Shown here one piece after another: positions 4,898 to 45,700 of a DNA stretch of 64,000 nucleotides; the stretch's first letter is position 1; every line of letters starts with the position of its first letter. The stretch is taken from the NCBI GenBank assembly GCA_044892525.1, contig CM097885.1, positions 19,470,001-19,534,000 of the forward strand. The letters are read 5' to 3'. The DNA comes from Schmidtea polychroa. Lineage: Eukaryota. Position numbers and translations under genes: made by a program. The notes below the pieces were generated by a model. That model saw only the letters and a program-made list of their open reading frames with translations. It was not told where the DNA came from and ran no database searches.

Positions 4898-4945
4898 TTG
4901 TCACAATTATTTCAAAATTTTAAAAATTCAATTTACCTATCTAAA

Positions 4946-5608: not shown

Positions 5609-5659
5609 TCACTTTTTAAAATATTTTGATACAAATTTTCTTAAATATTTTGATAAAAT

Positions 5660-8300: not shown

Positions 8301-8391
8301 ACAGTATTCAGGGCCGACCAAATGTAACAATCTAGGACACGAAAAGGAACATTTAATAACTTGCCTAAAAGTGACTGTAGTACCTCTACTT

Positions 8392-8505
<114 letters not shown>

Positions 8506-8510
8506 TAAAT

Positions 8511-10889: not shown

Positions 10890-12408
10890 ATATAAATAAA
10901 AAAACGTTTTATTTTATTCTAATAATTAGAAAAGGAGAAAACAGATCTTTTTAAAATGTAGAAAAGATCGAGCTTACCAATATTTTAGATAAAAATGAAG
11001 TGCGTTTAAAAGATGAAGCTAAATTGCAATAGAGATAGATTCTTTCTGCCAAATCATAACCAGCTACGGATCAAATACAAGGACCTACTCCAAAAATCTA
11101 TAATAAATAAATATTGTACAATTTCAATCGTTGTATTTTCCTAACCACGATAGTAACGTAAGTTACTCAACTAAATAAAAACAAATAAATGTTAGCGGAA
11201 CTAAATGCTAATTTGTATATAAAGTGTTTAAAAATTATTTAAAAAGACTCACTTACGAAATTTTCTATATTTTTAAACAAAATAATAAAATGAATACCAT
11301 TGATGAAATTTTCAACTAAAAATAAAAAATTATTAAATCTTTCAATTTAAATTTTACTTGAATATTTTACCAACCTTGAGGAAAATTTTGAAAATTTTTA
11401 AATTAAAATTTAATTGAAACTTAAAGTTTTCTATTATGGATACAATAAATACTTAAAATACGAAGTTAAATTAAAAAAAAATCATTAAATGCATGATAAT
11501 TAAAATAAATTTCCAAAATACATATGAATAATTTTTTTAAAAGTTAAAATAAAGAAATTATTATTTCTTTATAAAACTAATAAAATAAAATGTTTAAAAT
11601 AGATTAAAATATACATTAAAACAAGTTAATTTCAAGTTAAGATTTTATTACAATTTTTATTAATATAATTATTAAAAAATTATGCTTGTTTTTTAAAAAA
11701 TATATAAATATATATATTTGAATTCTTTTTAAATAATTTTTTTTAAATTTGTATATATATAATAAAATAAAATATATATAAGAAAATAAAATTCTTATCG
11801 AAATACTTTTCGAATGTCTTTTTACATATTAAATGTTTAATCTTTCAGGTGAAATTTAAATAAAACTAAAAATCTAGAAATTATTTAGTAAGTTTTTTGA
11901 AGTAAATTTTTAATTTAAAAAGGAATTATTATCACGAAATGAAATTCGGTTAGAACTTTTCCCTTTTGATTTTCCTATAAATGTCTCATTAAAGTAAAGA
12001 ATTTCAAGATCAACATAAATTTTATCTGATAAATGTATATTATTACATTATCTTTAAATTCATGATTTTAAACAAAAGAAACTTATTTGTTTTTGAAGTC
12101 AAAAGATCAAAATCCTTTTAAATATAATTGAGAATATAATAATTAATTTATTATATTTTAATAAAACTTTCAAAAATATTTGAAAAATAAATTATAGTTT
12201 TTATGATTGAAAATTTTAAATATGAAATAAGAGTATTGATTACAAAGAGTGGATATTTCTGAGACCAAAATTTTATTGTTTATTAGGTAACACAAATACG
12301 ACAAAAGCGAAAGGTGTAACATTGAAAAATGTAGACATTAAACCTCAGTAGATGGATATGTCCTTTCCACACCATGTCCCATTCACACCACTATCCCTTT
12401 ACCACACA

Positions 12409-14047
12409 CTACATCTTTTCCGGAGCAAGAGGGAAATCGTTCAAATAATTATGCAACAGAATGGGGATATTTATATTGACTTCAATAGTGTAACCAATAT
12501 CCGAATTTATACACTCGTGCAATATAGATTCAAAATTATTATAAACCCAAGTAAAATCGGCATGTGGAAGTTTTTGGCTAAGAGCCCAACCATACAAATT
12601 ATTAATATCAATATATAATAATTCTGTATTCTCTGAAGTTGAAACATGATGCTTGTTAACAAATGTCAAACTACCTCGTATTCCTCCCTCATAAAAATTG
12701 AACATTTCCATATCCTGCAAAATTTCAATCGACTCTTGTAACGTCATGAGTGCTGATATCCATGACATACCAGGAATGCCATAGAAATTCAGAGGTTCAA
12801 GACCATTGTAAGCAATGACCTTTGCGCGGAATCGTTGGATATAATCAGCCAAGAGAAATACATCTAATTTAAGATAAGTTAACATGTAGTCCAAAAGATT
12901 ATTACAATTTGTTGAGCAGTAGCATATTCATCTGCCGTAACACCATCCCAAATTGGTGGCAATTCAAGAGTAGATTCTAGAATTTCTAATGAAGTAGCAA
13001 AATTATAAGGGAAAATGCCTTTACAAGTCATAATAGAACCTTCAAAAGCAGATGGTGTCAAAGAAAGATCCAACAGCCTTTGCCAAAGAACAGTTCGATA
13101 AAACGAACAGGTAATATTTTGATATAAGAGATTAATGATATATAAATAATATTCAACTCCCACGATGGAAAATAATCAAGACCAAATTTCAAAATATGAT
13201 GAAGATCATATCCCTTCAAGTTATGAAAGACTACAGGATACTGTTTTTGAATTCGGCGAGAAATATTAAATTTACTACAGTCAGCACCAAGATACTTGCC
13301 AGAGAAATGATCATGATCTCGAACTTTGCGAATAATAAATTTTTTACAAAGGTAACAGGTTGTAAAGAAATTGAAAGCACGATTTTGGGCCCAAGTCATA
13401 GTTTTTAAAGGTGTTTTGCCACGAATTTCACAATAAGGGATAAATGCTAAATGCTAAGGGATAAATGTCAGCAATCTCTTCAATTTTACGCAAAAATTTC
13501 CAAAACACAATCAGTACCAATGAAATTATAATATGATTTTGTATTTGTGTAGTTGTTAATTAGTAAAAGGCCTGCGGATATTGGATGAATTTGACGATGT
13601 ATTACATCTTTAGGTAAAAACGATTCGAAATCGGCATAAATTAAAATTGGTGGGTAATTGTATTTGCAAAATTTTCGAATTGCAAGTTTTTATTTGTAGG
13701 AAGAGTGTAAAGAATCGTTCGTATCTGATTTTTACTACACAATGTAACATATCTATCAAAATCATGTAATCGAAATTCATTAAGGCAATGAGGGCACCAA
13801 TTAATTCTTATTCTTATCGAGCAATCTATATTATTAGGATGACAATTCATTAAACGTTGCAAGTTGATAATGGCCGTATAATGATAGTTATCATCATCTT
13901 CAAGAAGTAGCAAGTACACAGGTATGCCATCAATAACTTTGGATCTATGTATAATATCAAGGTGAGGATGATGTGGCACATAAGCATCATCATTATTACT
14001 GTCATTGTCCATAATAATTACATGTTTGTATGAAAATACACTTATAG
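12409..14047 (-). pseudogene. Protein-primed family B DNA polymerase A, middle part, 3'-truncated against the TIR
   Basis: YADFES (ExoI), CYLC..RDHDHFSGKYLG (endonuclease VII-like), FHNLKGYD, YLKLDV, YIDINNLYG, FPLAPE; many disruptions. Confidence 0.92.
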
Positions 14048-17000
14048 TGTTGGGCTAGAACTGATTTCTAGACCCAAAGTTAGGAATGGGACGAAATGTG
14101 TCAGTACACAACACGCATACCCAGCATTAAGTTTACTTAAATAAAAATATATAAAACACCAAGTAAACAATGATAATAGAGAGATAATATACCCAAAAAT
14201 AAAACATCTGAATTAAAAATAAAATAAAACACGAGCAAGAAGTATTACATGAAAACTTACTCAAATATAACCAAAAGACATAAAACAACAAAAAACAAAT
14301 TCGAATAAAGGCAATTAGTAAAAATTAAAAAAGAAAATTAAAGAAAATCTTCATAAAATCTTACGTAAAGAAAATTATATCGATATTTTGAATAAAAATC
14401 CAGAACAATTCATAAAAATGGCGAAATCCATCATGACGGCCAAACGACCCAATAAAATTTATAAAAAATAAATATTTTAGTTTAAAAAATAAATATTTTA
14501 GAAAAGAAATCATAAAAAACAATTTAAAAATAAGAAATAGATTAAATTTAGCATGGAATGTTCTGGAAATGCTGAAATCCATCATGGAGGCAAATTTAAT
14601 AAAAAATAATTCGAAAATAAAATTTCAAAAATAAAAACAAAAATTCTTACTGAAAAATCGCCATTAAAATCGATAAAAATTAAAAATCGAATGTTCGAGA
14701 ATTAAAATAATCCGAATTTGTTTTACTGCATCAATGCACGCATGTATACTTACACGTCAAACAGAGGCTATATAAACTAACACATTTCGTCACTTTTGAA
14801 GCAAGAAAAATATGCTAATGTTTACTCTTATGCCAAATTTTTGATTTTGATTTTTCTGAGATTGTAGGTAAGGACGATTTCATTGTGAATTATAAATTAT
14901 TATTATTGAAACCTTGTTTTCATTATTTCTTTTTAACTATAGAAATGTAGGTTTGAGTGAGATCGTCGGTTATCATTGATTTTGGAGCGAGATCCCAGTC
15001 AACCCTGCACCTATGCACTTTATCATCGATGATTAAACAGCCCACAATGATTGCAGGTCACTGCCTGGCACGCACTTATCAATATCATTTGTTTTTTTTT
15101 TTTTTGTTTTGTTCAGGTCATTCGGAGGTCGCACCACTTCATGGTTCTGCCATGGAGTTAAGTCGATGAAATCCTCCGTCTGACTCTACCTATTTATTAT
15201 AGGTCAGTCGTAAAGGGTTGACTTACCACACAACAGTAAGGTTTGTCGTAGTGGTCACAGTGGGGCCGCGAAAGCAAACACTCCTCCCGACTTTCAATGC
15301 ATGAATAATTTACATAGTTAAAATCTACATCCAAAATCATCACAATACAATACACTAAGGTTAATAAACAGAGTAGATCTCAGACCTAAATTAATCACAA
15401 CTCTACAATTCACAATTAATGTAGACGGTTAAATATCATCAAGAACCAACTCTACCTATACGTTTGTCGAATCTAGATTTATAAATGTCCTAAATAAATT
15501 TTCTAGTAATAATGTAAAGTAAAGATTTTTTTTTCTAAATGATTGATTTAGTAGCGATAGTATTCATAAAGGTGTTCGACATGCGTACCGGCAAGACTTG
15601 GATTTTAAATTGAATAGACTCTGAACTAACTATAAAAATACAAATCGTAAACCCATAAAAGTATAAATTATCATCTCAATTGCATAAAAATATGAATTGT
15701 ACTTATAGATTTAATTTCTTCAAAATATAAATTATGATTAGTTATAAAGGTATAAATTACAAATTTAATTTTTCAAAAATATAAATTACAAATCTATATT
15801 GACGGTAAAATTATAAATTATAACTCTAAGTTGATTGTAAAAGTATAAATTATAATCTTAATTTCTTCAAAATATAAATCATGATCTTAAAAGTATAAAT
15901 TATAAAATTATATTAGCTACAAAATATAAACTATAAATTTACCTTAACTTCATAAAAATATAAATCATAAACTTAAAAATATAACTTATAAAATTATATT
16001 AGCTTTAGAAATATAAACTATAAATTGAACTTCACCAAATATAAATTATACACTTAAAAAAAAAAAAAAAAAATTATAAAATTATATTAGCTTTAAAATA
16101 TAAACCATAAAATTAGCTTCATAAAAATATAAATTATAAACTTAAAAATACAAATTATAAAATTATATTAGCTTTGGGAATATAAACTATAAATTGAACT
16201 TCACCAAATATAAATTATAAACTTAAAAGTATAAATTATAAAATTATATCAGTTCTAAAATATAAACTATAAATTTAACTTCATAAAAATATAAATTATA
16301 AAATTATATTAGCTTTAAAATATAAACTATAAATTTAACTTAACTTAGATTGCCTTTAACATCATAGTTGAAAATTTTTCATCAAAGACCCCCCATAAAC
16401 CATATAGTCATCAACTACCACCTAAATATACTAAATTAGCTTATCTTAATATACATTTAACTTATATTATATTTAAAACTATAAATTGTAAAATTTCATG
16501 AATGACCCCCCTCAAAATTATACAGTCATTACCCATTACCTAAGCATACTAAATTGACTTATTTTTAATATATATTTAACTTACATTATAATAAAAAATA
16601 TAAGTTGTAAAATTTCATGAATGACCCCCCCTCAAAATTATACAGTCATTACCCATTACCTAAGCATACTAAATTGACTTATTTTTAATATATATTTAAC
16701 TTACATTATAATAAAAAATATAAGTTGTAAAATTTCATGAATGACCCCCCTCAAAATTATACAGTCATTACCCATTACCTAAGCATTTTAAATTAACTTA
16801 TCTTAATATATATTTAACTTATATTATATTTTAAAATATAAATTGAAAATTTTCATAAATGACCCCCCTTCAAATCATGTAGCCATTAACTATTCCTTAG
16901 GTACACGAAATTATATCATCTTCGTATAGAGCTAAATTATATTTCAAATCAAACCAAAAAATAAATAATTCCATAATTTTCGCAAAAGATACCCCCATAT

Positions 17001-19159
17001 GTGGGAATCTTGTAAAAAAATAAACTTACATTTATTATTATCATTAACATTATTATTATTATCGTTATTAATATTATTATTATTATTATTACTATTATTA
17101 TTATTATTAGTATTATTACCATTAACATTACCACTCTTATCATTATTATTACTATTATCATTACTATTATTATTATATTATTAAAATAATTATCTTTATT
17201 TCAAAAAATAAAATTATAAAACCGATTATTGATTTTGGGATTCCCCTATCTCTAAATTTAGTCTCAATGGCCCTATCTTCCAATAAAATTACGGAAAATC
17301 ACTAAAATCTATTTTTAGCAACACCCCCCCCCGGAAAACGACATCAATATTATTAATTTAAATTATATCCATATATAGGTATGTGTGTATATGTATATGT
17401 ATATATACATGTGTGTGTGTATATATATATATAGGTGTGTGTGTGTATGTACATACAGATTTATAAAGCAACCTTATAAAAATACGATAACCTTCCCCCT
17501 CAAGACCCCTGTTATGTGATGGTCACAACCCCCTTAAGGTGATGGAGCGAGGTTAGAGTAGTTTACTGAAGTAATTTAGTAGAATCATTTATTGATTTAT
17601 TAGAATTATTGGATTTATTTTTAACTAAATCAAAAGAGACTAAATTTATTTTTAACTAGATCAAAAAAAAAAAAAAGAAAAACAAAGACCAAGTTTATTG
17701 ATTTCGATCATCAACTTTATTCATATAATTGTTTCTTTGAATCATAGTTATACCAAGGTCCTTCGAGCACGGTTGATGGACCATCCCAATGAAATACATT
17801 TCCTGGAGTTGGAAGACTTCTGGGTAATTCCTTATTTTCTGCTTCGTTCCTTTTGGTTCAATGACTTACATATTGATTTGACGTAATATTGTTGGATGGC
17901 CAACTATATTCCTTGCATCTCTTTTTGAGTAGTCATTGTCAGATAATTCCGCCAGGAAGATTAGTTGGTGGAGCTGACCTTGGGGCAATCAAACCTTCGT
18001 ACCTCACTGAATTATTATCAACTCGATTGCTAAGGAAATTAATGAAGTTAATTAATTAAATTAAGGAAGTTAATTACAATTTTCTCATTGGTGTTGTCAA
18101 ACGATCTTTGCTCATTCGAGATGTCATAATACATTATTGATCAATAGTAATTGTTCGGAGATTCGGCCAAATGCTGATATTCCTGAAATATTATGAAATT
18201 TTAGGATATAAATGCTTAAAATTTTAATTTATTTACATTATTATATCAAAGTTAACTAAAATCATATATTTATTCAAAATTTGTTATTTAACATTAATTA
18301 TAATTACTATAATAAAACAACGAAAATTTAAATAATGTTAAATAACTTTAACAAAACAAAAAGTAATAATGAAATCAAAATTCCATTACTTTATTTAAAT
18401 TATTAGTTACCAACTTGTTCTAGTATTTTAACATAATGAATTCAAGTATATTACGGAGTTAGTTTGGTCATTTGAGGAATATTATAAATTGAAAATTTAA
18501 GTAGATTAGAATTATTTACTCTTCATAAGAACTTTTATGATTGTAATGAATCTAAACTTCATATATTAATATTACCCATAATTTACAAGTGATATTTGGA
18601 TTATGTTAAAATAGGTTGTAAGTTAACTTAACTAAATTGAAATTTTCTTTTGATCAGGTTATCGTGGGGAATGCATGTTATCTTTATCATTTCTATTGTT
18701 TCAGTTTATTAAGTTTTTTTTTTTTTCTAATTAAATTCATTAGTCTCAGAAATTTCTTGAGGTTTGTTTAATAAACTATGGTTATGTTTCACTTAATTTA
18801 TATTCAAACATTTTAGATGTGGTGTTGTATGAACAGGCTTTAATAGAGTAATGTATGATTCCTGATGACTTATGATCGTTTGAGGATAGAGAGTTTGTAT
18901 AGGCATAGTTGAGGAAGTGATTATAATAAGGGACCTGCGTAAATCGGACATACATCTTCTAACGATAGTCCGTGAACCCATTAGAGTGCTCGACAATTAC
19001 AGTGCAAGTAGTGCGCTCACTTTTTGCGAGTACTCACCCTCTTGATACAGTACCAACGTTGATCGTTCAACGGGTATCAAGCGGTAAACAATGTTGTATC
19101 TTGGGTTACGCTGGTAACAGCACTAAAGAGCAAAATATTTGATCATCAGTAACCCACCA
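14048..19159 (+). repeat. 5' LTR (5112 bp)
   Basis: TGTTGGGCTAG..AACCCACCA; near-identical to 30033-35057. TATA-like GGCTATATAAAC at ~14766. Confidence 0.97.
15650..16900. repeat. Minisatellites inside the LTR (AT-rich AAATATAAATTATAAA units, then ~120-bp ATGACCCCCCTCAAAATT units, about 5 copies)
   Basis: Visible tandem units; the same arrays occur in the 3' LTR at ~31636-32800. Confidence 0.9.
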
Positions 19160-19167
19160 TACAAATT

Positions 19168-19185
19168 TGGGGGCTCAGCCGGGAT
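19168..19185 (+). promoter_or_regulatory. Primer-binding site, tRNA-Pro type
   Basis: TGGGGGCTCAGCCGGGAT versus the MLV tRNA-Pro PBS TGGGGGCTCGTCCGGGAT (16/18), 8 nt downstream of the LTR end. Confidence 0.85.
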
Positions 19186-20046
19186 ATTTAAACTTTCTTG
19201 GTAAAGAACCTGTAAGTAGACGGGAATGCATAGCGGTTTTTTGATCAGAAAATGAAATGCTTTATGCAAGAGTAAGAAAGATTGTTTTCTCAAATAACTA
19301 GACATGATGTGTGAATATGCGTGTATGATCAAAATGAATGTTGAATGTTGTACATGATGAATAAAATGTTTTAAATTATGTAAATATAGAAAATCGATAA
19401 AACTGGGTATGAGAATAATGTATGAGCGTTCCGTGTTGATGGGACAGAATGTTGATGGGTAAGAAATGAAATAAAAATCAAAAATAATAAAAATTGTAAA
19501 TATAAACAACTAATACTTTGGATATAAGAAAATAATAAAAAATTCAAAAATAGGGAAAAGGGGGGGATAGAAAATAACGGTATAAAGAAAAAGGGGATAA
19601 AGCATAAAACAGTGAATTGCGAAATAGAAATGGATAGATGATGCAATTACTTAAAAATAGGGGGAAGATGTAAAACTACGTTAAAGATTAAAGGGGTATA
19701 TTGAGTATTTGATAAAATGACTAAAATTATGGACAAGCTGGGATCAAAAGGGTTATGTAGACTAAGATAATAAACTAGAGGGAACGGATAAGAATGCGCG
19801 GAACATCAGTTAATGGATTGGGAGCCTAAACTAACAGGGTAAAACAGCTATTGAACTTACATAATTTGAATAAGGAAATAAATGGGTAGAGGTAAGCTAA
19901 TTAAAGGGGAATAAGAACACTTAATAAAATGCTGAATTAATAAAGTATAACTTGATGGAATTAACCGGCTACATTATAAAGAAACTTGAAAATTCGTAAA
20001 TTTAACTAACAACTCACTACAAAGATTGAATTGAAAAGCAGAGCAG

Positions 20047-20458
20047 TTGGCAAACACTCAAGAAGGACTGATCTTAAAACCAAGACCAGTAGATGATGAA
20101 TTGTGTATAATGACGAGAATTGCTACACCAAATGTGGAATTAACTACTCAAAGAGTATATCAGATTCAGAATTTACATTTAGATAAGGCCAAATTTAACA
20201 TCAAATGGCAAGAATTAAAGATAAAAATTTAAACGGTTGAAGATGCGATAAGAGAGGCGATCGATAATGAATTCAAATGTTGTGTGTGTAGAAGCAATGA
20301 GATAAAAATAATGATGGTACCTTGCGGACATCTATGTTATTGCCAAGATTGTGCATTGAAACTGAAGCGATTGTAATGTATGTGACGCAAACATGAGAGA
20401 AAGAGTAGTAGTGTACCTCCCTGAGGGAGATGTAGAAAAATTGAAGATGATGAAATGA
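20047..20458 (+). pseudogene. IAP/MIB-type RING-HC E3 ligase remnant in the LTR-element leader
   Basis: After a stop at 20230: CCVCRSNEIKIMMVPCGHLCYCQDCALKL-(1-nt frameshift)-DCNVCDANMRERVVVYL, the C3HC4 pattern of IAP-type RINGs. Confidence 0.8.
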
Positions 20459-30032: not shown

Positions 30033-33000
30033 TGTTGGGCTAGAACTGATTTCTAGACCCAAAGTTAGGAATGGGACGAAATGTGTCAGTACACAACACG
30101 CATACCCAGCATTAAGTTTACTTAAATAAAAATATATAAAACACCAAGTAAACAATGATAATAGAGAGATAATATACCCAAAAATAAAACATCTGAATTA
30201 AAAATAAAATAAAACACGAGCAAGAAGTATTACATGAAAACTTACTCAAATATAACCAAAAGACATAAAACAACAAAAAACAAATTCGAATAAAGGCAAT
30301 TAGTAAAAATTAAAAAAGAAAATTAAAGAAAATCTTCATAAAATCTTACGTAAAGAAAATTATATCGATATTTTGAATAAAAATCCAGAACAATTCATAA
30401 AAATGGCGAAATCCATCATGACGGCCAAACGACCCAATAAAATTTATAAAAAATAAATATTTTAGTTTAAAAAATAAATATTTTAGAAAAGAAATCATAA
30501 AAAACAATTTAAAAATAAGAAATAGATTAAATTTAGCATGGAATGTTCTGGAAATGCTGAAATCCATCATGGAGGCAAATTTAATAAAAAATAATTCGAA
30601 AATAAAATTTCAAAAATAAAAACAAAAATTCTTACTGAAAAATCGCCATTAAAATCGATAAAAATTAAAAATCGAATGTTCGAGAATTAAAATAATCCGA
30701 ATTTGTTTTACTGCATCAATGCACGCATGTATACTTACACGTCAAACAGAGGCTATATAAACTAACACATTTCGTCACTTTTGAAGCAAGAAAAATATGC
30801 TAATGTTTACTCTTATGCCAAATTTTTGATTTTGATTTTTCTGAGATTGTAGGTAAGGACGATTTCATTGTGAATTATAAATTATTATTATTGAAACCTT
30901 GTTTTCATTATTTCTTTTTAACTATAGAAATGTAGGTTTGAGTGAGATCGTCGGTTATCATTGATTTTGGAGCGAGATCCCAGTCAACCCTGCACCTATG
31001 CACTTTATCATCGATGATTAAACAGCCCACAATGATTGCAGGTCACTGCCTGGCACGCACTTATCAATATCATTTGTTTTTTTTTTTTTTTGTTTTGTTC
31101 AGGTCATTCGGAGGTCGCACCACTTCATGGTTCTGCCATGGAGTTAAGTCGATGAAATCCTCCGTCTGACTCTACCTATTTATTATAGGTCAGTCGTAAA
31201 GGGTTGACTTACCACACAACAGTAAGGTTTGTCGTAGTGGTCACAGTGGGGCCGCGAAAGCAAACACTCCTCCCGACTTTCAATGCATGAATAATTTACA
31301 TAGTTAAAATCTACATCCAAAATCATCACAATACAATACACTAAGGTTAATAAACAGAGTAGATCTCAGACCTAAATTAATCACAACTCTACAATTCACA
31401 ATTAATGTAGACGGTTAAATATCATCAAGAACCAACTCTACCTATACGTTTGTCGAATCTAGATTTATAAATGTCCTAAATAAATTTTCTAGTAATAATG
31501 TAAAGTAAAGATTTTTTTTTCTAAATGATTGATTTAGTAGCGATAGTATTCATAAAGGTGTTCGACATGCGTACCGGCAAGACTTGGATTTTAAATTGAA
31601 TAGACTCTGAACTAACTATAAAAATACAAATCGTAAACCCATAAAAGTATAAATTATCATCTCAATTGCATAAAAATATGAATTGTACTTATAGATTTAA
31701 TTTCTTCAAAATATAAATTATGATTAGTTATAAAGGTATAAATTACAAATTTAATTTTTCAAAAATATAAATTACAAATCTATATTGACGGTAAAATTAT
31801 AAATTATAACTCTAAGTTGATTGTAAAAGTATAAATTATAATCTTAATTTCTTCAAAATATAAATCATGATCTTAAAAGTATAAATTATAAAATTATATT
31901 AGCTACAAAATATAAACTATAAATTTACCTTAACTTCATAAAAATATAAATCATAAACTTAAAAATATAACTTATAAAATTATATTAGCTTTAAAATATA
32001 AACCATAAAATTAGCTTCATAAAAATATAAATTATAAACTTAAAAATACAAATTATAAAATTATATTAGCTTTGGGAATATAAACTATAAATTGAACTTC
32101 ACCAAATATAAATTATAAACTTAAAAGTATAAATTATAAAATTATATCAGTTCTAAAATATAAACTATAAATTTAACTTCATAAAAATATAAATTATAAA
32201 ATTATATTAGCTTTAAAATATAAACTATAAATTTAACTTAACTTAGATTGCCTTTAACATCATAGTTGAAAATTTTTCATCAAAGACCCCCCATAAACCA
32301 TATAGTCATCAACTACCACCTAAATATACTAAATTAGCTTATCTTAATATACATTTAACTTATATTATATTTAAAACTATAAATTGTAAAATTTCATGAA
32401 TGACCCCCCTCAAAATTATACAGTCATTACCCATTACCTAAGCATACTAAATTGACTTATTTTTAATATATATTTAACTTACATTATAATAAAAAATATA
32501 AGTTGTAAAATTTCATGAATGACCCCCCCTCAAAATTATACAGTCATTACCCATTACCTAAGCATACTAAATTGACTTATTTTTAATATATATTTAACTT
32601 ACATTATAATAAAAAATATAAGTTGTAAAATTTCATGAATGACCCCCCTCAAAATTATACAGTCATTACCCATTACCTAAGCATTTTAAATTAACTTATC
32701 TTAATATATATTTAACTTATATTATATTTTAAAATATAAATTGAAAATTTTCATAAATGACCCCCCTTCAAATCATGTAGCCATTAACTATTCCTTAGGT
32801 ACACGAAATTATATCATCTTCGTATAGAGCTAAATTATATTTCAAATCAAACCAAAAAATAAATAATTCCATAATTTTCGCAAAAGATACCCCCATATGT
32901 GGGAATCTTGTAAAAAAATAAACTTACATTTATTATTATCATTAACATTATTATTATTATCGTTATTAATATTATTATTATTATTATTACTATTATTATT

Positions 33001-35057
33001 ATTATTAGTATTATTACCATTAACATTACCACTCTTATCATTATTATTACTATTATCATTACTATTATTATTATATTATTAAAATAATTATCTTTATTTC
33101 AAAAAATAAAATTATAAAACCGATTATTGATTTTGGGATTCCCCTATCTCTAAATTTAGTCTCAATGGCCCTATCTTCCAATAAAATTACGGAAAATCAC
33201 TAAAATCTATTTTTAGCAACACCCCCCCCCGGAAAACGACATCAATATTATTAATTTAAATTATATCCATATATAGGTATGTGTGTATATGTATATGTAT
33301 ATATACATGTGTGTGTGTATATATATATATAGGTGTGTGTGTGTATGTACATACAGATTTATAAAGCAACCTTATAAAAATACGATAACCTTCCCCCTCA
33401 AGACCCCTGTTATGTGATGGTCACAACCCCCTTAAGGTGATGGAGCGAGGTTAGAGTAGTTTACTGAAGTAATTTAGTAGAATCATTTATTGATTTATTA
33501 GAATTATTGGATTTATTTTTAACTAAATCAAAAGAGACTAAATTTATTTTTAACTAGATCAAAAAAAAAAAAAGAAAAACAAAGACCAAGTTTATTGATT
33601 TCGATCATCAACTTTATTCATATAATTGTTTCTTTGAATCATAGTTATACCAAGGTCCTTCGAGCACGGTTGATGGACCATCCCAATGAAATACATTTCC
33701 TGGAGTTGGAAGACTTCTGGGTAATTCCTTATTTTCTGCTTCGTTCCTTTTGGTTCAATGACTTACATATTGATTTGACGTAATATTGTTGGATGGCCAA
33801 CTATATTCCTTGCATCTCTTTTTGAGTAGTCATTGTCAGATAATTCCGCCAGGAAGATTAGTTGGTGGAGCTGACCTTGGGGCAATCAAACCTTCGTACC
33901 TCACTGAATTATTATCAACTCGATTGCTAAGGAAATTAATGAAGTTAATTAATTAAATTAAGGAAGTTAATTACAATTTTCTCATTGGTGTTGTCAAACG
34001 ATCTTTGCTCATTCGAGATGTCATAATACATTATTGATCAATAGTAATTGTTCGGAGATTCGGCCAAATGCTGATATTCCTGAAATATTATGAAATTTTA
34101 GGATATAAATGCTTAAAATTTTAATTTATTTACATTATTATATCAAAGTTAACTAAAATCATATATTTATTCAAAATTTGTTATTTAACATTAATTATAA
34201 TTACTATAATAAAACAACGAAAATTTAAATAATGTTAAATAACTTTAACAAAACAAAAAGTAATAATGAAATCAAAATTCCATTACTTTATTTAAATTAT
34301 TAGTTACCAACTTGTTCTAGTATTTTAACATAATGAATTCAAGTATATTACGGAGTTAGTTTGGTCATTTGAGGAATATTATAAATTGAAAATTTAAGTA
34401 GATTAGAATTATTTACTCTTCATAAGAACTTTTATGATTGTAATGAATCTAAACTTCATATATTAATATTACCCATAATTTACAAGTGATATTTGGATTA
34501 TGTTAAAATAGGTTGTAAGTTAACTTAACTAAATTGAAATTTTCTTTTGATCAGGTTATCGTGGGGAATGCATGTTATCTTTATCATTTCTATTGTTTCA
34601 GTTTATTAAGTTTTTTTTTTTTTTCTAATTAAATTCATTAGTCTCAGAAATTTCTTGAGGTTTGTTTAATAAACTATGGTTATGTTTCACTTAATTTATA
34701 TTCAAACATTTTAGATGTGGTGTTGTATGAACAGGCTTTAATAGAGTAATGTATGATTCCTGATGACTTATGATCGTTTGAGGATAGAGAGTTTGTATAG
34801 GCATAGTTGAGGAAGTGATTATAATAAGGGACCTGCGTAAATCGGACATACATCTTCTAACGATAGTCCGTGAACCCATTAGAGTGCTCGACAATTACAG
34901 TGCAAGTAGTGCGCTCACTTTTTGCGAGTACTCACCCTCTTGATACAGTACCAACGTTGATCGTTCAACGGGTATCAAGCGGTAAACAATGTTGTATCTT
35001 GGGTTACGCTGGTAACAGCACTAAAGAGCAAAATATTTGATCATCAGTAACCCACCA
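30033..35057 (+). repeat. 3' LTR (5025 bp)
   Basis: Copy of 14048-19159, differing visibly by one ~88-bp minisatellite indel and homopolymer lengths. Confidence 0.97.
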
Positions 35058-35935
35058 ATAGCAAGGTTTAGATGACAATTTTTCTTCTCAAATTTCGATC
35101 AGTTATAGGGTCATAATTAATCTCATTCAAGAAACCGGTATACTTACTCACTCTATTCCAATGATTTCTAATCTGATCATGTTTTAATACAGCAAGTACA
35201 CTATATATAAAAAGCACATATTGTCTGTATTCTTAATGTTCACTATTGCAGTTTTATTATACAACGATGTTGGTGTTGGTATATATAAATGGCCGGATAA
35301 GCGATTAATTGGATAATATTTTGTCAAGATAAACACAATTTCTTTAATTTTATTTATTCGCCACCCACTACCGAGATATGTAAATTTATCTATTTTCTCG
35401 TTTGATTTTTGTGACCCTTTAATAATAAAATCATCCGAGAAAACAAGTGCTGTATTTGAAAAATAGTTGTCCCTAATTTCTCCATCTTTTTCAAATTGTA
35501 TAAAAACTGTAAATTGTATTTTTTCAGACCCGATCTTGCTTATTTCTAATGCTAGATGAACCCTAATTTTATCCGTTAAAGATATTTGAATCAATTGATG
35601 TTTAGAAACATCAAATCGTAGATTTTTTCGAGCACTTTGAAACTCGATAGTTATAATAGGATCATCATCTACATGTAAAGACCCTCCTACTTGATTAATA
35701 GGAATACGAGGGGAATCAGCAACACCTGCTTCATTGTCACTTTTTTAATAATTTTAGTTGAGACAACTTCATTTTTATTTTTTACAGACCTTTTATTGTT
35801 ATTATTATTAATTATGTTAAAGAATTGCCTATTAAAGATTTCTCTAAACATTTCCTTCCTATTTGATGAAAACTGATTTATTAAATGTATTCACTGTAAA
35901 ACTCTTTAAAAGTAGAATGGTTAATAGTCTTGCAT
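35058..35935 (-). pseudogene. pPolB A, N-terminal part (continues at 14047); 5' limit approximate
   Basis: KIQF..GSGWRINKI..YIPTP..AIVNIKNTDNMCFLY, the Polinton pPolB N-terminal motifs. Confidence 0.88.
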
Positions 35936-36213
35936 TTATGATATAAAATATTCGATTCTGTTGAATCTACGACCGTAATATGATGTCATTAGAGCATGGC
36001 ATTTGGAGTTATGCTCGATTCCAGATACGCCGTATCGAGGATATAAAAAACCCGATAAATATAAAATAAACAAGTCGTAGTTATATATTATTATTAATAT
36101 TTTGTGGCAAAATTTATATCTTGAATTTATATTTCATTTTATTAAATATATACTTGACAACAAATGCCAAAATTATCATTTAATTGTTTAATATTATTAT
36201 CGTTATCATTATT

Positions 36214-36364
<151 letters not shown>

Positions 36365-36437
36365 CATCATCATTATTATAAAAATTATTAATATTATTAC
36401 TACTATTATTAACATATAAAATAAAAATAGAAAAAAA

Positions 36438-36813
36438 TCAACATTTTTCATGGACATCTTTGGCTTCCATAATTATTTCATCGGAGACATAATTTATTTC
36501 TTCATTAATTACATCTAAAAAATGCAGTTTTAAAAAATATATAAAATTAAAATAATTTACCATTTTCAAAAATTCTGGAAATATCCAGGAGATATTCATT
36601 TTCTGTGATCTCGAACGAATCTCCGATAAAAAAATCTAAAATAATATTAATAAAATTAATTGAAAAAATAAAATTTACCATTTCCTTCATGTTCATTCGA
36701 ATTTCCACGAAATTGTAGAGAATTAGCTTGACTAGTTTCTAAATAATAAAGTAAATATCTATATAAAATTAAAATTTAAAATTACCACCGACAACTTTTG
36801 AATTATTAGCCAT
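36438..36813 (-). CDS. Multi-exon acidic protein (exons 36813-36786, 36738-36679, 36635-36561, 36514-36438), positional equivalent of 4946-5608
   Basis: Three phase-1 introns of 47, 43 and 46 nt give MANNSKVVGETSQANSLQFRGNSNEHEGNDFFIGDSFEITENEYLLDISRIFENDVINEEINYVSDEIIMEAKDVHEKC*. Same promoter motif as the first copy. Confidence 0.7.
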
Positions 36814-36960
36814 TTGTGAATTTGAAAATAAATTGTGACAAAACTACCAATGTCAATGTTTATAAAGTGATTGTGACTTTAAAAATCAAACAATCAACAA
36901 CATATACATTTTAAAATCAATAAAATAGATTAAACAATAAAATAAAACCAGAAACATTTA

Positions 36961-37345
36961 TTATAAATCAAATATTTTATACACCAACCATATTAAACAG
37001 TGTTGACCCCATGTTTGAGTCATTGAATTTTGAAACATTGTTTTATTATATACAATAGGTTTACCCATTCTTTGAAATTTCGATACCAATAACGCAGGAT
37101 AATAGAATCCCATAGGATCGAATACATGTATCCTATCGGGTTTTACATAGACTCCAATCCAATGTTGACCACCAAGATGTGATGAATGGGTATTGACGAT
37201 TATGTCTTGATTATTACGTAAATATGGTATTTTATTCAATGGATATACTCCAACAAACTCATTTCCTAAAAACTGTTTTCCAATTCGATTGACCTGTATA
37301 AAACTACCTCAATAAATTAGATAATACACAAAGAACTTACTCCAT
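36961..37345 (-). pseudogene. Adenain-type protease, copy 2 (37-nt intron 37304-37340; catalytic Cys replaced by Trp)
   Basis: MDFIQVNRIGKQFLGNEFVGVYP..GQHWIG..FDPMG..QTWGQHC. Confidence 0.9.
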
Positions 37346-37379
37346 GACAAATTTTTAATATTACCAAACGCATTTTTAC

Positions 37380-38267
37380 CTATACCAGAACAGTTCTATT
37401 TGCAGTAATTCGTACCTCATTTTCAAATACTCCATATATTCTAACATGCACAGGTTCTGCAATAGCTTTTGCAAACTTTATATCTAATCGTAAATTTCCA
37501 TTTGGAGGTAATTGACTCTGATTCAAATCAAAATCAGGTGCGAAAACAAATGTAAAGAACGGTTATTTGGTTTTGAATTCTTCAGGAATTATTCCACAAT
37601 TCAAATTTTTATCTAAATAGTCCATATTTCTTGCAATACTTTGCATATATGTAGCAGAGTAATTATCATTATCAAAATCTTGATTATATGTTTCTCTATA
37701 ATCAGTATTTTTCGATAGTGACAAGGATGTAACATCAAAGTTTTTGAAAATTGAGCTTGAAGCAATGTATGATCCATTATATGGAGTTTCAGATTGAAAT
37801 GTTATCAGAATCAAGTTTGGCATTCTTCTATCTCCATATATTTGTTCCTTATAGAAGGAAGAAGCACCTTTGGCTATTGCAAATGAAACAATTTCTTTGG
37901 TTTTCAGTGGATAGATCGCATGCTTAGAATTAAGACCCAACTGATGACCTGCTAATACCGACGGATCAACTCGAACTCGTCTTACTTGTAATTTTGCATC
38001 AACTAATTGACATATTGGTTGACCATTAGCACTAGTTAGTGACAATGCAGAATCGGTTCTTTTCAACCTAATGTGCACATTGACTCCTGGAAGTAAATAT
38101 TATGGTTGATCTAGAAAGTCAGCTGTAATGATGAACACATGGTAAAAATCTTTGAGCCTTTAATCCACTTTTTTCTATCGTCATCAGTTCCCGCATAGCC
38201 CATAGGAGTAAGATATGTATTTTTAGTATCGGTATTATAATTTAAAATAGTTTCTATTATCGCCTTG

Positions 38268-38270
<3 letters not shown>
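37380..38270 (-). pseudogene. Major capsid protein, copy 2; 5' part lost at a (TA)n tract
   Basis: Closely similar to 3205-4093 (HKAIIETILNYN..VRRVRVDPSVLAGH..GNLRLDIKFAKA); frameshifts. Confidence 0.93.

Positions 38271-38331
<61 letters not shown>
38271..38331. repeat. (TA)n microsatellite at the deletion junction
   Basis: Visible directly. Confidence 0.97.
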
Positions 38332-38337
<6 letters not shown>

Positions 38338-38415
38338 CCTTAATTAACCTATAACATTTAAAATTCATTTCTTTGTATACCAAAAATCATTTCAGACTTT
38401 GTTAATTAGCATAAA

Positions 38416-38960
38416 ATGGATCACGTTTTGGTCATGTCTGTCTGTCACTTGAAACTTTGTTTACAATTCATCTGTTTCAATTCATTAGATATTACAACTA
38501 CAAATGGACCATCAAATTACAGGTTTGTTGTCATTTGCAAATATTCCATTTAATAGTTTTTAAATTTAGGAGTATTGAAGAGAAAAATACAGATGCCGCT
38601 CAGGAATTCGGAAAACGGAAATTTAAAGAATCGACATTATCCCTGGAAACCTTGCTCAATGTTCGAGTGGATACAAAAAAGCCAATAGAATTCTTGCAAT
38701 ACAAACTAAATTATTTGTATTGTCCAATTTCTTATATATTTAAGGTAAGTTTGTTTAAATTATTTTGGATTTTATTATTTATTTATTGTTAGGAACCAGC
38801 AACTTTAGAAAAATGTTTCTACAATGTTCGATTTTCCAAAATCAAGTTCAATGATAACATGATATTGGGACAATTATTTCAGAGAATGAACGAAAATATT
38901 GAATTCAATGAAGAAGATTTGTTTATTAAATGCGATTTGGATATGATTCTCAACTCCTAA
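38416..38960 (+). CDS. Spliced hypothetical Polinton gene (exons 38416-38522, 38570-38744, 38793-38960), ~149 aa
   Basis: GT..AG introns of 47 and 48 nt keep one frame: ..GPSNYR|SIEEKNTDAAQEFGKRKF..YCPISYIFK|EPATLEKCFYNVRF..DMILNS*. Confidence 0.55.
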
Positions 38961-39325
38961 CCCAGTCAATAGTTTCAATAAATTCTTTAGTTTTTCACAT
39001 CTGGCATCATTCTCCTTTGCTTTATTAGCTAGTCTAATCATGATAATTCATCCACCATGATCATCGACCCATGGCATAATTTTTGATTCAGTAATCTAAA
39101 TAATGTTGATGTCAATTTGATCAATCAAAATAATACCTCTACAGACCTTTGAAAATAATTTTCAAAGTCTAAGCCCGATTTTTCCAAAAAATGTTTCATA
39201 CACATGAAAGCTATAATAATTCGAGACCATGTAATTTCATCATCGAATAATGTATAAAATATTTCCTCGAATAATTTTTTCACATCGGGAGTGTGACTTA
39301 AATGGTTCTCGTGTTGAATTGACAA
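38950..39325 (-). pseudogene. Bcl-2-family homolog (BH1 and BH2), 41-nt intron 39096-39136, stop in BH2; both ends uncertain
   Basis: LFEEIFYTLFDDEITWSRIIIAF (BH1: LFxDxxxWxRI), then after splicing ITESKIMPWVDDHGG* (BH2: WIxxxGGW with TGG>TGA at 39048-39050). Confidence 0.8.
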
Positions 39326-39339
39326 GCGATGTATCTGCG

Positions 39340-42300
39340 ATTAATTCTCCTGACATTGTTGTTCCAGATTGTCTCATTAAAGAAATAGAAGATCATATTC
39401 AACGAATGGGGACAGTAAAAATACAATTTGGACTTTGTGCAGAGTTTATCAACGAGGATGGTGAAATTAAAAAATGGTGTTTGTCGAATAAAGCAATTAC
39501 AATGTCATCTTCATTTATTAATGATGGAATTGAAAAAATTAAAAGAAAAGTTGGAGAAATACACTCAACAAAGTAGTGGGTGGAGAATTCATAAAATATT
39601 AGAAGTTACTATGATTTTAACTAAATTATCAGACATAATACATGTATCTGGTACGTTTTAAACATTATTATATATAAATCAAGTTATTTACTTAGGTTCA
39701 AGTTACGTTAAAACGCCAAATTACCTGAAAAACTGTAATTTACTGTTAATGTTCAAAACAATGATCAATTCTGTTTTTTATATAGCATACTAGCCGTGTT
39801 ACGTTATGATGATATACGCCGGGATAGAGAAAGAACAACAAAATATAACTTAAGTGGTAATATATATATATTAATAAATGTCATAAATCATTGAATTTTG
39901 TTTTTAAGATTTAAAATGGAAATTTGAATGGTTTCCCATGAAGTTGGTTAACATTTGCCAATTTGAAGCAATGAATCCAAATCTAGCGATCAATGTTCTC
40001 AAATATAATAAAGATCCAATTAAACAAAAAACTAATGATATTTTCAAGAATCCGTTCGTTGACTTGGTATATAGAAGTACTTCGACGGGATCTCAGATAT
40101 ATCTCCTATTGATTGAAGAAGGTAATATTTTCTTTAATCATTAAAAATATTAACTAAACTTTAGAATTAAATTATCATTTTTTGGCTGTAACCAATCTCG
40201 ATCGACTGCTGAATTACAGAGATAGAGTAGAAGGAGTCAGAATCCAATCACAATGGTGTCATACATGTCTTCATGGGTTTCGAAAACGTCCTGCTTTTGA
40301 AAGACATATAGGTCTTTGTAGGAAGAATGTGGAGCGGACGACTCTATACTCAATGCCAGAGAATAAATATATCGAATTTAAAGACTGGAGTAAAACTATA
40401 AAACAACAGTTTGTTGTCTACGCGGACTTTGAATCGATATTACCTCTAGATGACAAGCACTTCCAAAAACATGAGCCGATTGCATCTGAATTTGTGCTTC
40501 TTCATCAAGGTTGTCCGATCCGAAATGAAACATTTGTTGGGAAAAACTGTATCATTCAGTTTATACAAGCATTGGATGATATAGCTACAGACATAGTTTA
40601 TCCGTGGTATAAAACTAATGGATCAAAGGAAATGATGGAACTCACCTGGGAACAACAGGAAGAATTCACGACTCAAACTCATTGCTACCTTTGTAAAAAG
40701 ATTATTAATATACCTATTCGAGATCATGATCATTTTACTGGTCAATATCTCGGAGCAGCATGTCAAGATTGCAACTTGGCTAGAAGAATCAATCCGTCTT
40801 TACCTGTTGTATTTCATAATCTTCGTGGATATGACATTCATCATATATTAAAATATGCAATTGGAAAATTCCACGATTGGAATTTAATTGTTATTCCTCA
40901 ATCAACAGAAAAGTTTCTCACACTTACAGCGACATCGAAAGGCAGAAGAATTAGATTCATTGATTCTTTACAATTTTTAAATAGCAGCTTGGCAAATTTA
41001 TCAAAAAACTTGCCACGTCTTCCACTGACCTCAGATGTTTTCGAATCGCAGATGATGACTTGTAAAACCATTTTTCTTTATGATATGGCTACGTCAATGG
41101 ATGTTTTACAGTCAATAACAGAATTACCAACGATTTGGGAAGGAGTTAGTCAAGAAGATTATATACATGCAAATCAAATCTGGCGACAATACAACTGTGA
41201 GACACTGCTAGATTACATGCTCGTATATCTCAAGTTGGATGTTTTTCTACTAGCAGATATTGTTGAGGCTTTCAGAGAAAAAAACATTTGACGAAGATGG
41301 ACTTGAGGCTCTGTTGTTTGTTTCCATACCTGGATTAAGTTGGGCATCAGCAATTAAACAATTAGCTGAACCGATAGAACTTATTCAAGATCCAGAGCTT
41401 TACCGTTTATTTGAAGCTGGTATTCGCGGTGGAATGACATTTATCAACAAACATCATGTTGAAGCTGATGAATCCACACAAATGTCATACCTAGATGTTA
41501 ATAATTTATATGGATGGGCAGTGTCGCAAAAACCTCCTATTAGTGAATTTAGATGGTTAGAAGATCAGACTGAAATGGATAGTATTATTAAAAGATGTAT
41601 GAATGGAGATGAGTTTGATGGAGATCGTGGATATGTTTTGGAGGTTGATATCGTCATTCCAGATAGTATACAGGATAAACTAGAAGATTTACCTATAGCT
41701 CCTGAGCTTTTTTATCCGCCTGGAAGTAAAGTTGAAAAGTTGTTATTAACACACGAACCAAAGACCAATTATGTTATTAATAGTAGAATTTTGACTGAAT
41801 GGTTGAGTTATGGCGCAAAAGTCACAAAAGTTAATCGTGCTGTAGAATTCAAGCAAGTAGCTATTTTCAAAGGCTATATTGATTACAATACTCAAATGAG
41901 AGCAGCTAGTACAGATTCATTTCAGCGAGATTATTATAAGTTAAAGAACAACAGTTTATACGATAAAACCGTGGAAAACCTTAAGAAACGTATAAATTTG
42001 AGATTATGCAGCAAAAGAAAAAGATTGATAACTTATTGTAGTAATCCTACGTTTCGTCGTAGCATCAAGATTGCGGATGATCTCATTGCTGTTATACTTG
42101 ATAAGGAAATGGTGTGTTTAGATAGACCAATGTACATTGGACAAACCGTACTTGATTTATCTAAACTTCGCATGTACCAGTTTCAATATAAAGAACTACA
42201 GAGTTACAGAGAAGAATTTAATTGTCAAATTAATATCGTAGTCGGTGACACAGATTTCTTCTTTTTAGAGTGTAAAAATGTTGATTTACGCTTACAACTG

Positions 42301-42771
42301 TATCCAAAAATGATTGCCGATGAGCTTCTAGATACTTCAAATTATCCAGTCGCTGATCCATTGTTCTCAGATAAAATTTGTTCGGTAATCTGGAAATTCA
42401 AGGTTTTGAATAAAGGAAATCAATATAAAGAATGGGTGTTTCTTCGACCCAAGTGCTACTAACTCCAAGGCGATAAAAAACACTCTAAAACCCAAAGGAA
42501 TAAGACTTACAAATTCTAATCTTACACATGAAGCCTATAAAAAAGTGTATACTAATGTGGAACAGTGAGCATCCCACAAAAAAGAATAGGAAGTGTCAAT
42601 CATCAGTTGTATACTTTCATGACAGAAAAACGAGCTCTCCAATGTTTGGACGATAAAAGGTATTGGTACCATTGTAATGAAAGTTATGCCTACGGTCACT
42701 ATATGATTCGTCAAATGCATATTGCAACTGCTATGTCTAGAAATGAATGCAAATCGAAACAAGCACTTTAA
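39340..42771 (+). pseudogene. Protein-primed family B DNA polymerase B; three introns (39651-39695, 39857-39908, 40122-40164); frameshifts and stops
   Basis: SGWRI, NVQNNDQFCFLYSILA, VYADFES, RDHDHFTGQYLGAACQDCN, FHNLRGYD, FIDSLQFL, YLDVNNLYG, KLKNNSLYDK, GDTDF, LRPKCY, DDKR..AYGHY. Confidence 0.95.
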
Positions 42772-45700
42772 CAATTAAATTTATGTGAATAATAAAATAT
42801 ATATTGTGAATTATTTGACTTAGTTAATTAAAATGTGTTTTATCATTTAATTATTCATTTGTCCAATTAATTTAGATAATTAGTTACAAGTAAGAAATAT
42901 TATTTTTGTGTTTATTTTATTTATTTATTTATTTTTTCCGAAAAATTAATATCCGGTTTATCTAAAATTAACTCAGCGTTTTATTTTCTAATAAATTAAA
43001 TAATTTCTAATTAAAATTTTATTCAAATTGAAATATTATTGTTATAATTTACGTTCTTGTTAGAATATAATGTAAATGTAAAATTAAAAAAAAATAAAAA
43101 ATAATAATAAATAAATAAATAAAATAAATAATAATAATAATTAAATAACGTTAGTAATTAAAATAAAATATTAATAAACTAATTAATTAAGAATATTAAA
43201 AAGAAAAAAAATAAATAGAAGTAATTAAATAAAATTTAAATTAAAAAATAAATAAATTAATTAAAAATAATAATAATAATAATTAAATAGCGTAAGTAAT
43301 TAAAATAAAATATTAATAAACTAATAAATTAATTAAATGTAATAAATTAAAATAAAACATAATAAAATAATTAATTAATAAAATTAAAAAGAAAAAATTA
43401 AAAAGAAGTAATTAAATAAAATGTTAATTTAAAAAATAAATGATTCGATTGGTCTATATTTGATCTTGATATTCCATGACCTTGAAAGTGCCGCTGGAGT
43501 CCTCATTATATACTACTATAATTTTGGGAAATATCTGAGTTGGAAAATTTTTAGAAATTTATTTTGGGGATTTTTTTTTGATTTGGAAATATTTTGTAAA
43601 TATTCCATGTGATTTTTTCTAGTAATTTGTTGATTTTTTCCAAGTATTTTTATATAAAAATTTCTAAGTGGTGTGACCTTAAAATTTTCAAATTTATCCA
43701 GGCATTTATATTTTTCAAATTTTTTTCTTAGTCAAGTGGTGTGATCTTCACTTTAAAGTGCTTTCATATTTAAAAAAAAATTTTTCTAAGTATATTATTA
43801 AAACTTTTGTTCATTGTCCCACCCTGTGTTGTAGAATATGATTTTATTTCTATAATATAAGATTTTCTGTTTGATAATATATGAATGATGTTATTCACTG
43901 TCTCGTCGTGTGTTGAAGTATACGATTTTAATTCTATAATATAAGGCTGGTGTAATCATCATAATATATAGAAGTTGTTAAATTATGGCGTAAATTTAGA
44001 GACTTTGAAGCTCATTTCCATGGAAACTATGCATTTTGTTCTATATATAGACTATATTTTCGTGTCCGTTATAAAATTCCTAGTTTAAAAAATATCTCCA
44101 GGGGGGGTTGTGGTGTGGAAGGGACATATCTATCAACTAACATCAGTCTTAGCAATCTTAGTTGTATAGTTTTCAAACTGATTAACTCGCCCTTACATAT
44201 AATGATAATAAAAGGATCTAGGAGGAGAAGAATGAAAGTCTGGCATATGATCATTATATAATACCAAATTGTGGTAAATTTGCAGAATAATCATCAAACT
44301 GTTCCTTAAACCGTTCACTTCTCATATCGATTTAATATATGTCTACTTACATATTTGTTTTGTTGTTATTATTGTTGTAATTAAACAATTAAAAATTCAC
44401 TTATTAAGTATGGAATATTTATCGATTACTGTTATTTAGTAAGTAGTAAACAGAAAAAATATCCTTATCAAATAACTACTCAGTTTATTTTAGAGATGAT
44501 ACAGTTAAGGAAAAATTACCAATTGTTATATTACCAATCCAAAAAGATCCATCCATAAACTATGTTTGTACCAAGAGAGGTGGGTGTTCTGAAATAGGAA
44601 ATTTGCTGCATCAATTTATATAGAGAAGCGATGTACGAATTGAGTTCAACCAATAAATTTACAATTACCTATTCTAGATATTTTATTCATTTTTCTTCTG
44701 GCAAAAAATAAAAATTAATTCTGTGTAACCCAATTCTTAGGCTTTGCTATTATTAAGTGTTATTACCACTTGATTAATGAAAAACCGGCAATTTGTGTTT
44801 CATAAAAATAATTTTTGATTTTTTGTCATAATGAAAACAAATGAAATATCAAGAAAAGAAAACAGAACAAAGGTGACCAAAAAATATAAAGGACTCACTG
44901 ATAGGAATTACTTATTCGTTATTCACCATTCTAATATTATTTATTATTTTTGCCATTTTCAGAAAATTAGATAATAAGCAAAGATTTTAAAGTGCAATAT
45001 TTATTTTTAAATATTAAAAAACTATGCAATATTAAAACAAAAGAAATGGTCAATCATGATTGAAATAAAAGAATTTGGTTTTTGTAAATTTTACAAAGCA
45101 TTTTTAGTGCCTGAATTTCTTTTATTAAATTAATTTAAGGTTAAATGATCACATTTTGAATTTGAATGGGTAAAGGTTTAAGTTATAAATATAAAATGAA
45201 TTTTTTTGAAAATAAAATTTTGTAACAGATAGAGTGACCACTTCGGTTTCACACGAAGATCTAATATTTTGTCGATATATCTCCGGTCTCCGGTCGGGTC
45301 AAGCCATTTCTTCAGTTATTTTATATCAGTTCGTTAAAAGGGACTTAAAATATTTTAAATCAGAAATTTAAATATTATATATTATATCTAATGAAATTTT
45401 AAATAAAGACATACTAAAAATAAAGGAAACATATACATTTCTGGCGGAAGTTTCTTAGTTTTTGAGCCTTATCATAGACATGGACTTCTATAAAGAATAA
45501 ATTTCTAGTGATACACTCGACCAAATTAGATACATAAGATGGCAAGTCCTTTGGTATTGGACACTATAAAATAAATTATGATAAAGATAATATCAGATAG
45601 AGACAAAGGAACTTTGACAATTATTGATACTAGAATCAGAAATACAAAAGCCGATTTATTGAAAATTTGGGTACAATTAAATCCTTATTGGAAACACTGC

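Follow-up and report, generated by a model that had tools for sequence, protein, structure and literature searches.

The window analysed here is a stretch of 64,000 nt from Schmidtea polychroa (GenBank assembly GCA_044892525.1, contig CM097885.1, positions 19,470,001 to 19,534,000 of the forward strand), numbered from its first letter. Between 12347 and 44138 it holds a unit with Polinton ends that encloses two genes for family B DNA polymerases of the protein-primed kind (pPolB), called A and B below. We favour, with a probability of about 45%, the reading that the 10.8-kb Polinton part of this unit (10,778 bp once an inserted long terminal repeat (LTR) element is removed) is a defective, non-autonomous mosaic of two lineages, which formed before its arrival and integrated as one piece. 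Both ends come from one terminal family and A and B from different lineages; joints that cut genes lie at J1, between A and the left end, and at J2, between the hexon gene and the B side, and the LTR element was inserted much later. Since one of the polymerases is truncated and the two are separated by deletion joints, the likeliest view is that of a one-off mosaic rather than of a virus with two polymerases.

The limits of the unit, and the neighbouring element used for comparison, are as follows.

12341-12346, plus strand: left copy of the target-site duplication (TSD), a 5/6 match to the right copy.
12347-12412, plus strand: left terminus remnant of ~66 nt, of which 28 nt match the right end; contains three sub-repeats of 16-18 nt.
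43440-44138, minus strand: arm and terminus on the right, of which 44111-44138 matches the left end; the inner limit of the arm is estimated by eye.
44139-44144, plus strand: right copy of the TSD, a 5/6 match to the left copy.
1-6731, plus strand: element 1 (comparison), with a small open reading frame (ORF), integrase, penton-like gene, second small ORF, hexon, protease, acidic gene and right end.

The matching termini of the original prediction were recovered over a short distance: 12347-12374 (plus) and 44111-44138 (minus) are alike at 25 of 28 nt, a match equalled in none of 100 shuffles, but the likeness ends there and no long pair follows. In place of the long terminal inverted repeats (TIRs) of an intact autonomous Polinton the unit has this 28-nt match and the ~66-nt left remnant, and the sub-repeat found three times in the left end occurs once in the right. 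No third copy of the terminus was found in the window by a scan allowing up to 9 mismatches, and the viral contigs searched with the terminus pattern gave 0 matches. The two termini of the unit resemble each other more than they do element 1, whose terminus (6731) has only its first 11 nt in common with the left one. The ends of the unit start with AGTAG and AGTTG, carrying one AGT each, the (AG)3 or (AGT)2 of vertebrate elements being used as comparison (PMC8097293; this and the other publications are cited for the part of their text that was accessible). The predicted 6-bp TSD is present as aacctc and aacatc, a match with a chance of 0.007 for the local base content, and as a mark of a Polinton/Maverick it is weakened by the loss of ~60 nt of the target at the junction.

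That target is itself a polymerase gene, which the original prediction had overlooked. Columns below refer to a pPolB profile of 1150 columns built from 66 homologues (64 of the 120 listed plus the metagenome loci L006 and L016), picked by likeness to B.

12226-12346, plus strand: left flank, a C-terminal piece of a third, older pPolB (D), the insertion target; found by tblastn, profile columns 1034-1069.
44145-44269, plus strand: right flank, pPolB D continued in the strand and frame of the left flank; profile columns 1097-1130.

The two flanks match successive C-terminal parts of full-length pPolB homologues and are therefore co-linear, the left one with all four homologues compared (tblastn E 2e-9 to 1e-4) and the right one over 44162-44269 (E 5e-5 to 0.016). 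Between the aligned pieces stand 21 nt, one hexamer counted, that is 7 codons where 27 are expected, so that the frame of D is kept and ~60 nt are absent. Co-linear flanks imply that the 31.8 kb occupies one site, which makes a chimeric assembly, and misassembly of the unit in general, unlikely; they are no proof of the TSD, because six bases preserve the frame with or without a duplication. As the unit lies inside pPolB D, Polintons nest at this locus.

The same junction bears on the view, which we consider improbable, that the two ends come from separate events, either two same-family insertions ~60 nt apart in D that were fused by deletion, with the hexamer match due to chance, or a chimeric assembly. 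It would account for the disappearance of D sequence exactly at the junction, where 7 codons stand for the 27 expected profile columns, and it is helped by a TSD that matches at only 5/6 and by a frame that six bases would keep anyway. However, the chance of such a hexamer match is small, as given above, and without some preference for this target two insertions within 60 nt are improbable; co-linear flanks at a distance of 31.8 kb are not what a chimeric assembly should produce, and A continues across an LTR element which bears its own 4-bp duplication. Sequencing runs probed with 35058-44600 gave partial word matches in 20 of the 24 runs listed, in every case with fewer than half of the words (best 0.49) and with no RNA run among them; these matches were not used as evidence.

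Polymerase A and its surroundings consist of the following parts.

12415-14047, minus strand: 3' part of pPolB A, columns 230-794, cut after polymerase motif A at J1 (~12412-12418).
14048-35057, plus strand: young LTR element inside pPolB A, 21,010 bp, with LTRs at 14048-19159 and 30033-35057, TG...CA ends and the 4-bp duplication ATAG.
35058-36046, minus strand: 5' part of pPolB A, columns 37-207, including an N-terminal zinc-motif region at 35940-36046.
36100-36131, minus strand: TATA-like box upstream of pPolB A, a candidate promoter from the motif list and from the sequence by eye.
36216-36377, no strand: (ATT)n microsatellite separating pPolB A from the acidic gene; possibly a joint, but unproven.

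A lies on the minus strand and is split by the LTR element, as had been predicted, but it is an incomplete gene, and neither the start proposed at 35935 nor the stop at 12409 is what it was taken for. Coding sequence extends to at least 36046 (tblastn E 0.003 and 0.011 with the N-termini of two homologues); at the other side A is cut at ~12415, 66 nt from the end of the unit, and runs directly into the left terminus, whose sequence supplies the stop at 12409. Within its two stretches of the profile A keeps three exonuclease motifs and motif A. Motifs B and C are gone, and with ~340 C-terminal columns lost the unit does not hold the two complete pPolBs that would be expected of a dual-polymerase lineage. 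The 3' part matches PF03175 with E 3e-5, below the family cut-off.

A fourth pPolB piece, fragment C (58970-59464, minus strand), is 74% identical to A in nucleotides and 65% in amino acids, and is the sister of A in the tree described below; it has changed at 13 of 45 conserved columns, more than A or B.

39295-42771, plus strand: pPolB B, profile columns 29-1132, with five frameshifts and three predicted phase-1 GT-AG introns.

For B the plus strand and the end at 42771 stand, while homology begins near 39280-39298 and not at the proposed 39340. This gene supplies the protein-primed family B polymerase by which a Polinton/Maverick is recognised: it matches PF03175 with E 1e-10, its best homologues are 65% identical, and all six motifs are there, with a single conserved position altered in motif B and another in motif C. 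The predicted introns lie at 39651-39695 (45 nt), 39857-39908 (52 nt) and 40122-40164 (43 nt); their A+T content is 82-87% vs 69% in the exons, and each contains a stop if read through. At the same columns no intron is predicted in A or in the open full-length homologues, and the core ORFs of intact Polintons are intronless (PMC8097293), which B with its three predicted GT-AG inserts is not. Five of the listed homologues begin at profile column 341, directly past the last intron of B, and may hint at introns in relatives.

A and B point outwards between one pair of ends and are clearly diverged, both as originally described; placed on the profile by an alignment that allows for frameshifts and introns, they are 44.6% identical over 684 columns. 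In a pPolB phylogeny of 79 rows they fall in different supported clades. The idea that A is a duplicate or sister of B was rejected, since the tree forced to join them lost 148 units of log-likelihood (approximately unbiased test, p<0.001; 31 rows, fast search, and 2000 replicates, flagged as few by the program). Their decay is equal: of the 129 conserved columns that the two share, 12 are changed in A and 10 in B, and over the whole genes the counts are 12/130 and 20/236 (Fisher p 0.85), where 56 intact homologues have a median of 1.6% of conserved columns changed and a maximum of 7.8%. An old, dead passenger state of A was ruled out by this equality.

The sequence between the two polymerases contains a capsid block and the joints.

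36438-36813, minus strand: acidic gene of small size, predicted to have three GT-AG introns (47, 43 and 46 nt), the positional counterpart of the acidic gene of element 1.
36961-37308, minus strand: adenain-type cysteine protease, open part; PF00770 E 5e-5, above the cut-off.
37383-38269, minus strand: putative major capsid (hexon) gene, residues ~111-408; the 5' part (first ~110 codons) is lost at J2.
38271-38330, no strand: (AT)n run at J2, where the hexon stops.
38415-38960, plus strand: ORF remnant with one predicted 48-nt intron, a candidate only.
39128-39300, minus strand: Bcl-2-like gene piece; PF00452 E 8e-4, below the cut-off.

The order hexon, protease, acidic gene is common to the unit and element 1, in agreement with the original prediction, with 82% identity over 1373 nt and a shared promoter box. 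The hexon had no match in Pfam; we use the name given in the original prediction, presumably correct from its position in the usual gene order, and the gene is 45-62% identical to the protease-adjacent gene of the metagenome loci L006, L013, L016 and L034. The maturation protease and major capsid gene of a Polinton/Maverick are therefore both present, the capsid gene being identified by position and presumed order. The promoter region of the acidic gene aligns to that of element 1 with a score of 58 (shuffles 27.8 +/- 4.7, maximum 41), and the alignment of its coding part is not above chance. A role as spliced leader of A was considered for the acidic gene, which has a promoter box and a stop of its own, A having a separate candidate promoter. 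The acidic genes of both elements (4874-5560 and 36438-36864) have introns of 42-47 nt and a common TATAAAC promoter box.

Past J2 the likeness to element 1 does not go on (score 46, shuffled maximum 60). On the B side, the ORF at 38415-38789 has no match in Pfam or Atlas, and the Bcl-2-like piece has one relative (P0141), which aligns only over 39128-39280; against the PDB it is weak, the best Bcl-2 match (E 0.024) ranking under PPR repeat matches. The homologies of B and of the Bcl-2-like piece abut at ~39280-39300 on opposite strands, a position (J3) that is probably a third deletion, with both genes 5'-truncated there. Microsatellites have grown inside viral genes in both elements, as an in-frame (ATT)n at 777-875 in the element-1 integrase and as the (AT)n at 38271-38330 at the hexon break.

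Core genes of an autonomous Polinton are missing. There is no integrase between the ends, the integrases of L006 and L016 matching only element 1; the packaging ATPase queries from close relatives had no match in the whole window; and penton-like matches lie in element 1 and none between the ends. Neither the integrase nor the ATPase with a minor capsid gene that an intact autonomous Polinton carries is thus found within the unit. Related loci were 80 kept of 265 metagenome matches plus 2 viral-contig loci, 82 in all, most of them short and only L006 and L016 close and near-complete. The viral contigs gave no relative in a single-protein scan, and the two distant loci (31-32%) came from an alignment scan. 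L006 carries two tandem penton-like genes and, by eye, a TBP-like ORF and at its end a ubiquitin-conjugating-enzyme-like ORF (positions of these features 6512-8583 and 11330-11779); a TBP-like ORF is also present in L016.

On which lineage, that of A or that of B, owned the capsid block, the sequence evidence points both ways. The original prediction had A as an added gene, a view favoured by element 1, in which the acidic gene is followed by no pPolB. It is disfavoured because the four close loci with both genes (L006, L013, L016 and L034; 4/4) carry a single pPolB at the protease end, like A; in them the two genes stand tail to tail, whereas A has the same direction as the capsid block. Linkage of capsid and polymerase homologues (P0014, of the clade of A, and P0134, 16,321 nt) was tried and found uninformative, the capsid being only 54-66% identical to both capsids of the window; the closest capsid homologue (P0121, 82-93%) has no linked polymerase.

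These data also bear on the other origin offered by the original prediction, a stable dual-polymerase lineage. Its ancestor would have had a complete A at the protease end and a complete B at the other, both facing outwards, and the present copy would have lost the 3' third of A and the middle. We hold this to be rather unlikely, and the same applies to the version in which an intronless A with a zinc-motif N-terminus and an intron-split B beside Bcl-2 mark an intermediate stage of polymerase displacement, caught in a lineage that replicated and spread. Such a lineage requires no deletions beyond those observed, the equal decay means that A is no old dead passenger, A has a candidate promoter and an N-terminal region, and the interval between the acidic gene and A has no proven joint. 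On the other hand, A is catalytically incomplete, gene-cutting joints lie between A and the left end and between the capsid block and the B side, native sequence connects neither A with an end nor the capsid block with B, and the literature searched, in its accessible part, gave no description of such a lineage. A second pPolB was found in 0 of the 82 related loci, of which 13 are at least 8 kb long (two apparently one contig) and none is known to span both ends. A single pPolB can replicate an element from both ends, which likewise speaks against the need for two. The proposed lineage is thus left with no positive support.

A more serious competitor, although we regard it as less probable than the mosaic, is nested insertion in place. 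A B-family element would have entered pPolB D, a second Polinton with A, and with or without the capsid block, would have entered that element, and deletions would have taken away the ends of the inner element as well as the 3' third of A, the greater part of the left arm and the region from integrase to hexon. The unit itself is a Polinton inside a Polinton gene, three pPolB lineages and element 1 lie within 64 kb, and every joint cuts a gene, as deletions do. Tandem integration followed by deletion has been proposed for replicase reassortment (10.64898/2026.10.13.758929), and clustered Polinton insertions with rearrangement are known (10.1101/2024.01.15.575659). Nesting, however, demands that both inner termini be lost, and neither the motif scan nor the alignment of the joint regions to either arm found any; one comparison, 35940-36200 against the arm of element 1, scored 48, equal to the shuffled maximum, and was not counted. 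Internal TIR remnants, the sign of nesting named in the original prediction, are therefore not seen. Nesting also demands that A and B inserted almost simultaneously, and nesting of A alone would call for one further joint, the fourth, at the (ATT)n run.

The recombinant integrated as one unit, as the original prediction phrased it, agrees with the ends, with the TSD and the co-linear flanks, with A and B having decayed equally and with inner termini being absent; nesting then deletion is its rival. Polinton replication proceeds by protein-primed strand displacement. We propose that two Polintons were co-replicating in this way in one nucleus, and that template switching by a nascent strand, or recombination, took place at J2 and J1. 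A short genome would have resulted, both of whose ends were usable, and integrase provided in trans could have inserted it with a 6-bp duplication; both polymerase genes would then have decayed together. A recombinant origin explains the equal decay and the missing inner termini without further events, and A need not have functioned in this unit, because it was never seen whole there.

Several observations weigh against the mosaic. It rests on the one copy of the unit in the assembly, which does not fix the timing of the joints. Nesting is common here, as seen for the unit in pPolB D, the LTR element in A and a hAT element 1.5 kb off, and deletions occur without template switching too, as seen in the ~60 nt lost from D and in J3, which has the look of a simple deletion. 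Two insertions at nearly the same time would likewise agree with the equal decay. Finally, the ends differ past 28 nt, though fresh replication should have evened them; the difference would need slippage among the sub-repeats after insertion.

The remaining features of the window concern other mobile elements. The LTR pair has 0 substitutions in 5023 aligned nt and 4 gaps, so that the LTR element is far younger than the decay of the two polymerases. The single long ORF of this element (1479-1570 aa) has matches to Gag and to a zinc knuckle, and no reverse transcriptase or integrase family was found for it in Pfam; the element is possibly non-autonomous and very recent. The end of element 1 may run three bases further (6731-6737), which would make it almost an (AGT)2 motif, its other end lying outside the window. 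A DNA transposon at 8511-10889, 1.5 kb from the unit, has inverted ends of at least 15 nt, an 8-bp duplication (7/8) and a broken transposase with no Pfam match, which from its look we take to be hAT Buster-like. The ORF at 48616-49737 (373 aa) matches DUF659, a transposase-associated domain (E 4e-11), and the one at 63317-63592 has a weak Sleeping Beauty HTH match (E 0.004), as a Tc1-like remnant.

Mavericks of vertebrates, when intact, carry TIRs and 6-bp duplications and have ORFs free of introns; 96% of the loci are degraded (PMC8097293). The unit is like them in its pPolB, protease and putative capsid genes, its AGT-starting ends, 6-bp duplication and degraded state; it differs in its two pPolB lineages (one incomplete), in lacking integrase, ATPase and penton, in the 28-nt end match and in the predicted introns of B. 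In multi-replicase polisuvirus genomes, described in a 2026 preprint (10.64898/2026.10.13.758929), a second replicase is likewise found in one element or locus, and tandem integration with internal deletion is proposed, so elements with a second replicase are already reported. The emphasis there is on replicases of different classes (PolA, AEP, pPolB), with repeats or integrases bracketing the second module, whereas both pPolBs of the unit fall in a single broad group, and neither repeats nor an integrase bracket them; Figures 6C and 6E and the supplements of that preprint may hold two pPolBs at one locus. For nematode Polintons, displacement between pPolB1 and pPolB2 by recombination was inferred (10.1101/2023.08.22.554363), and the unit could be debris of such an exchange, although the nematode case involves two element classes with one polymerase each, 16% identical, and the unit holds A and B, 45% identical, together. 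The C. elegans eri-6/7 locus also has several Polinton insertions, partial pPolB-end remnants and rearrangement, but there host genes were rearranged, while the target here is the polymerase gene of another Polinton (10.1101/2024.01.15.575659). Two pPolBs under one pair of ends were not described in the accessible parts of the literature searched, including PMC12721341, PMC12220804 and PMC8502044 and covering few subscription papers.

Polymerase exchange between Polintons has been inferred from trees, and its intermediates are rarely seen. Only an intact arrangement of two polymerases that recurs would surprise a specialist, and none is seen here. If nesting and deletion produced the unit, it reflects ordinary decay in a Polinton-rich genome. 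If instead the mosaic formed before integration, it would record, as a fossil, that two lineages replicating together recombined in an animal-type host, and an end of 66 nt may suffice for mobilisation in trans.

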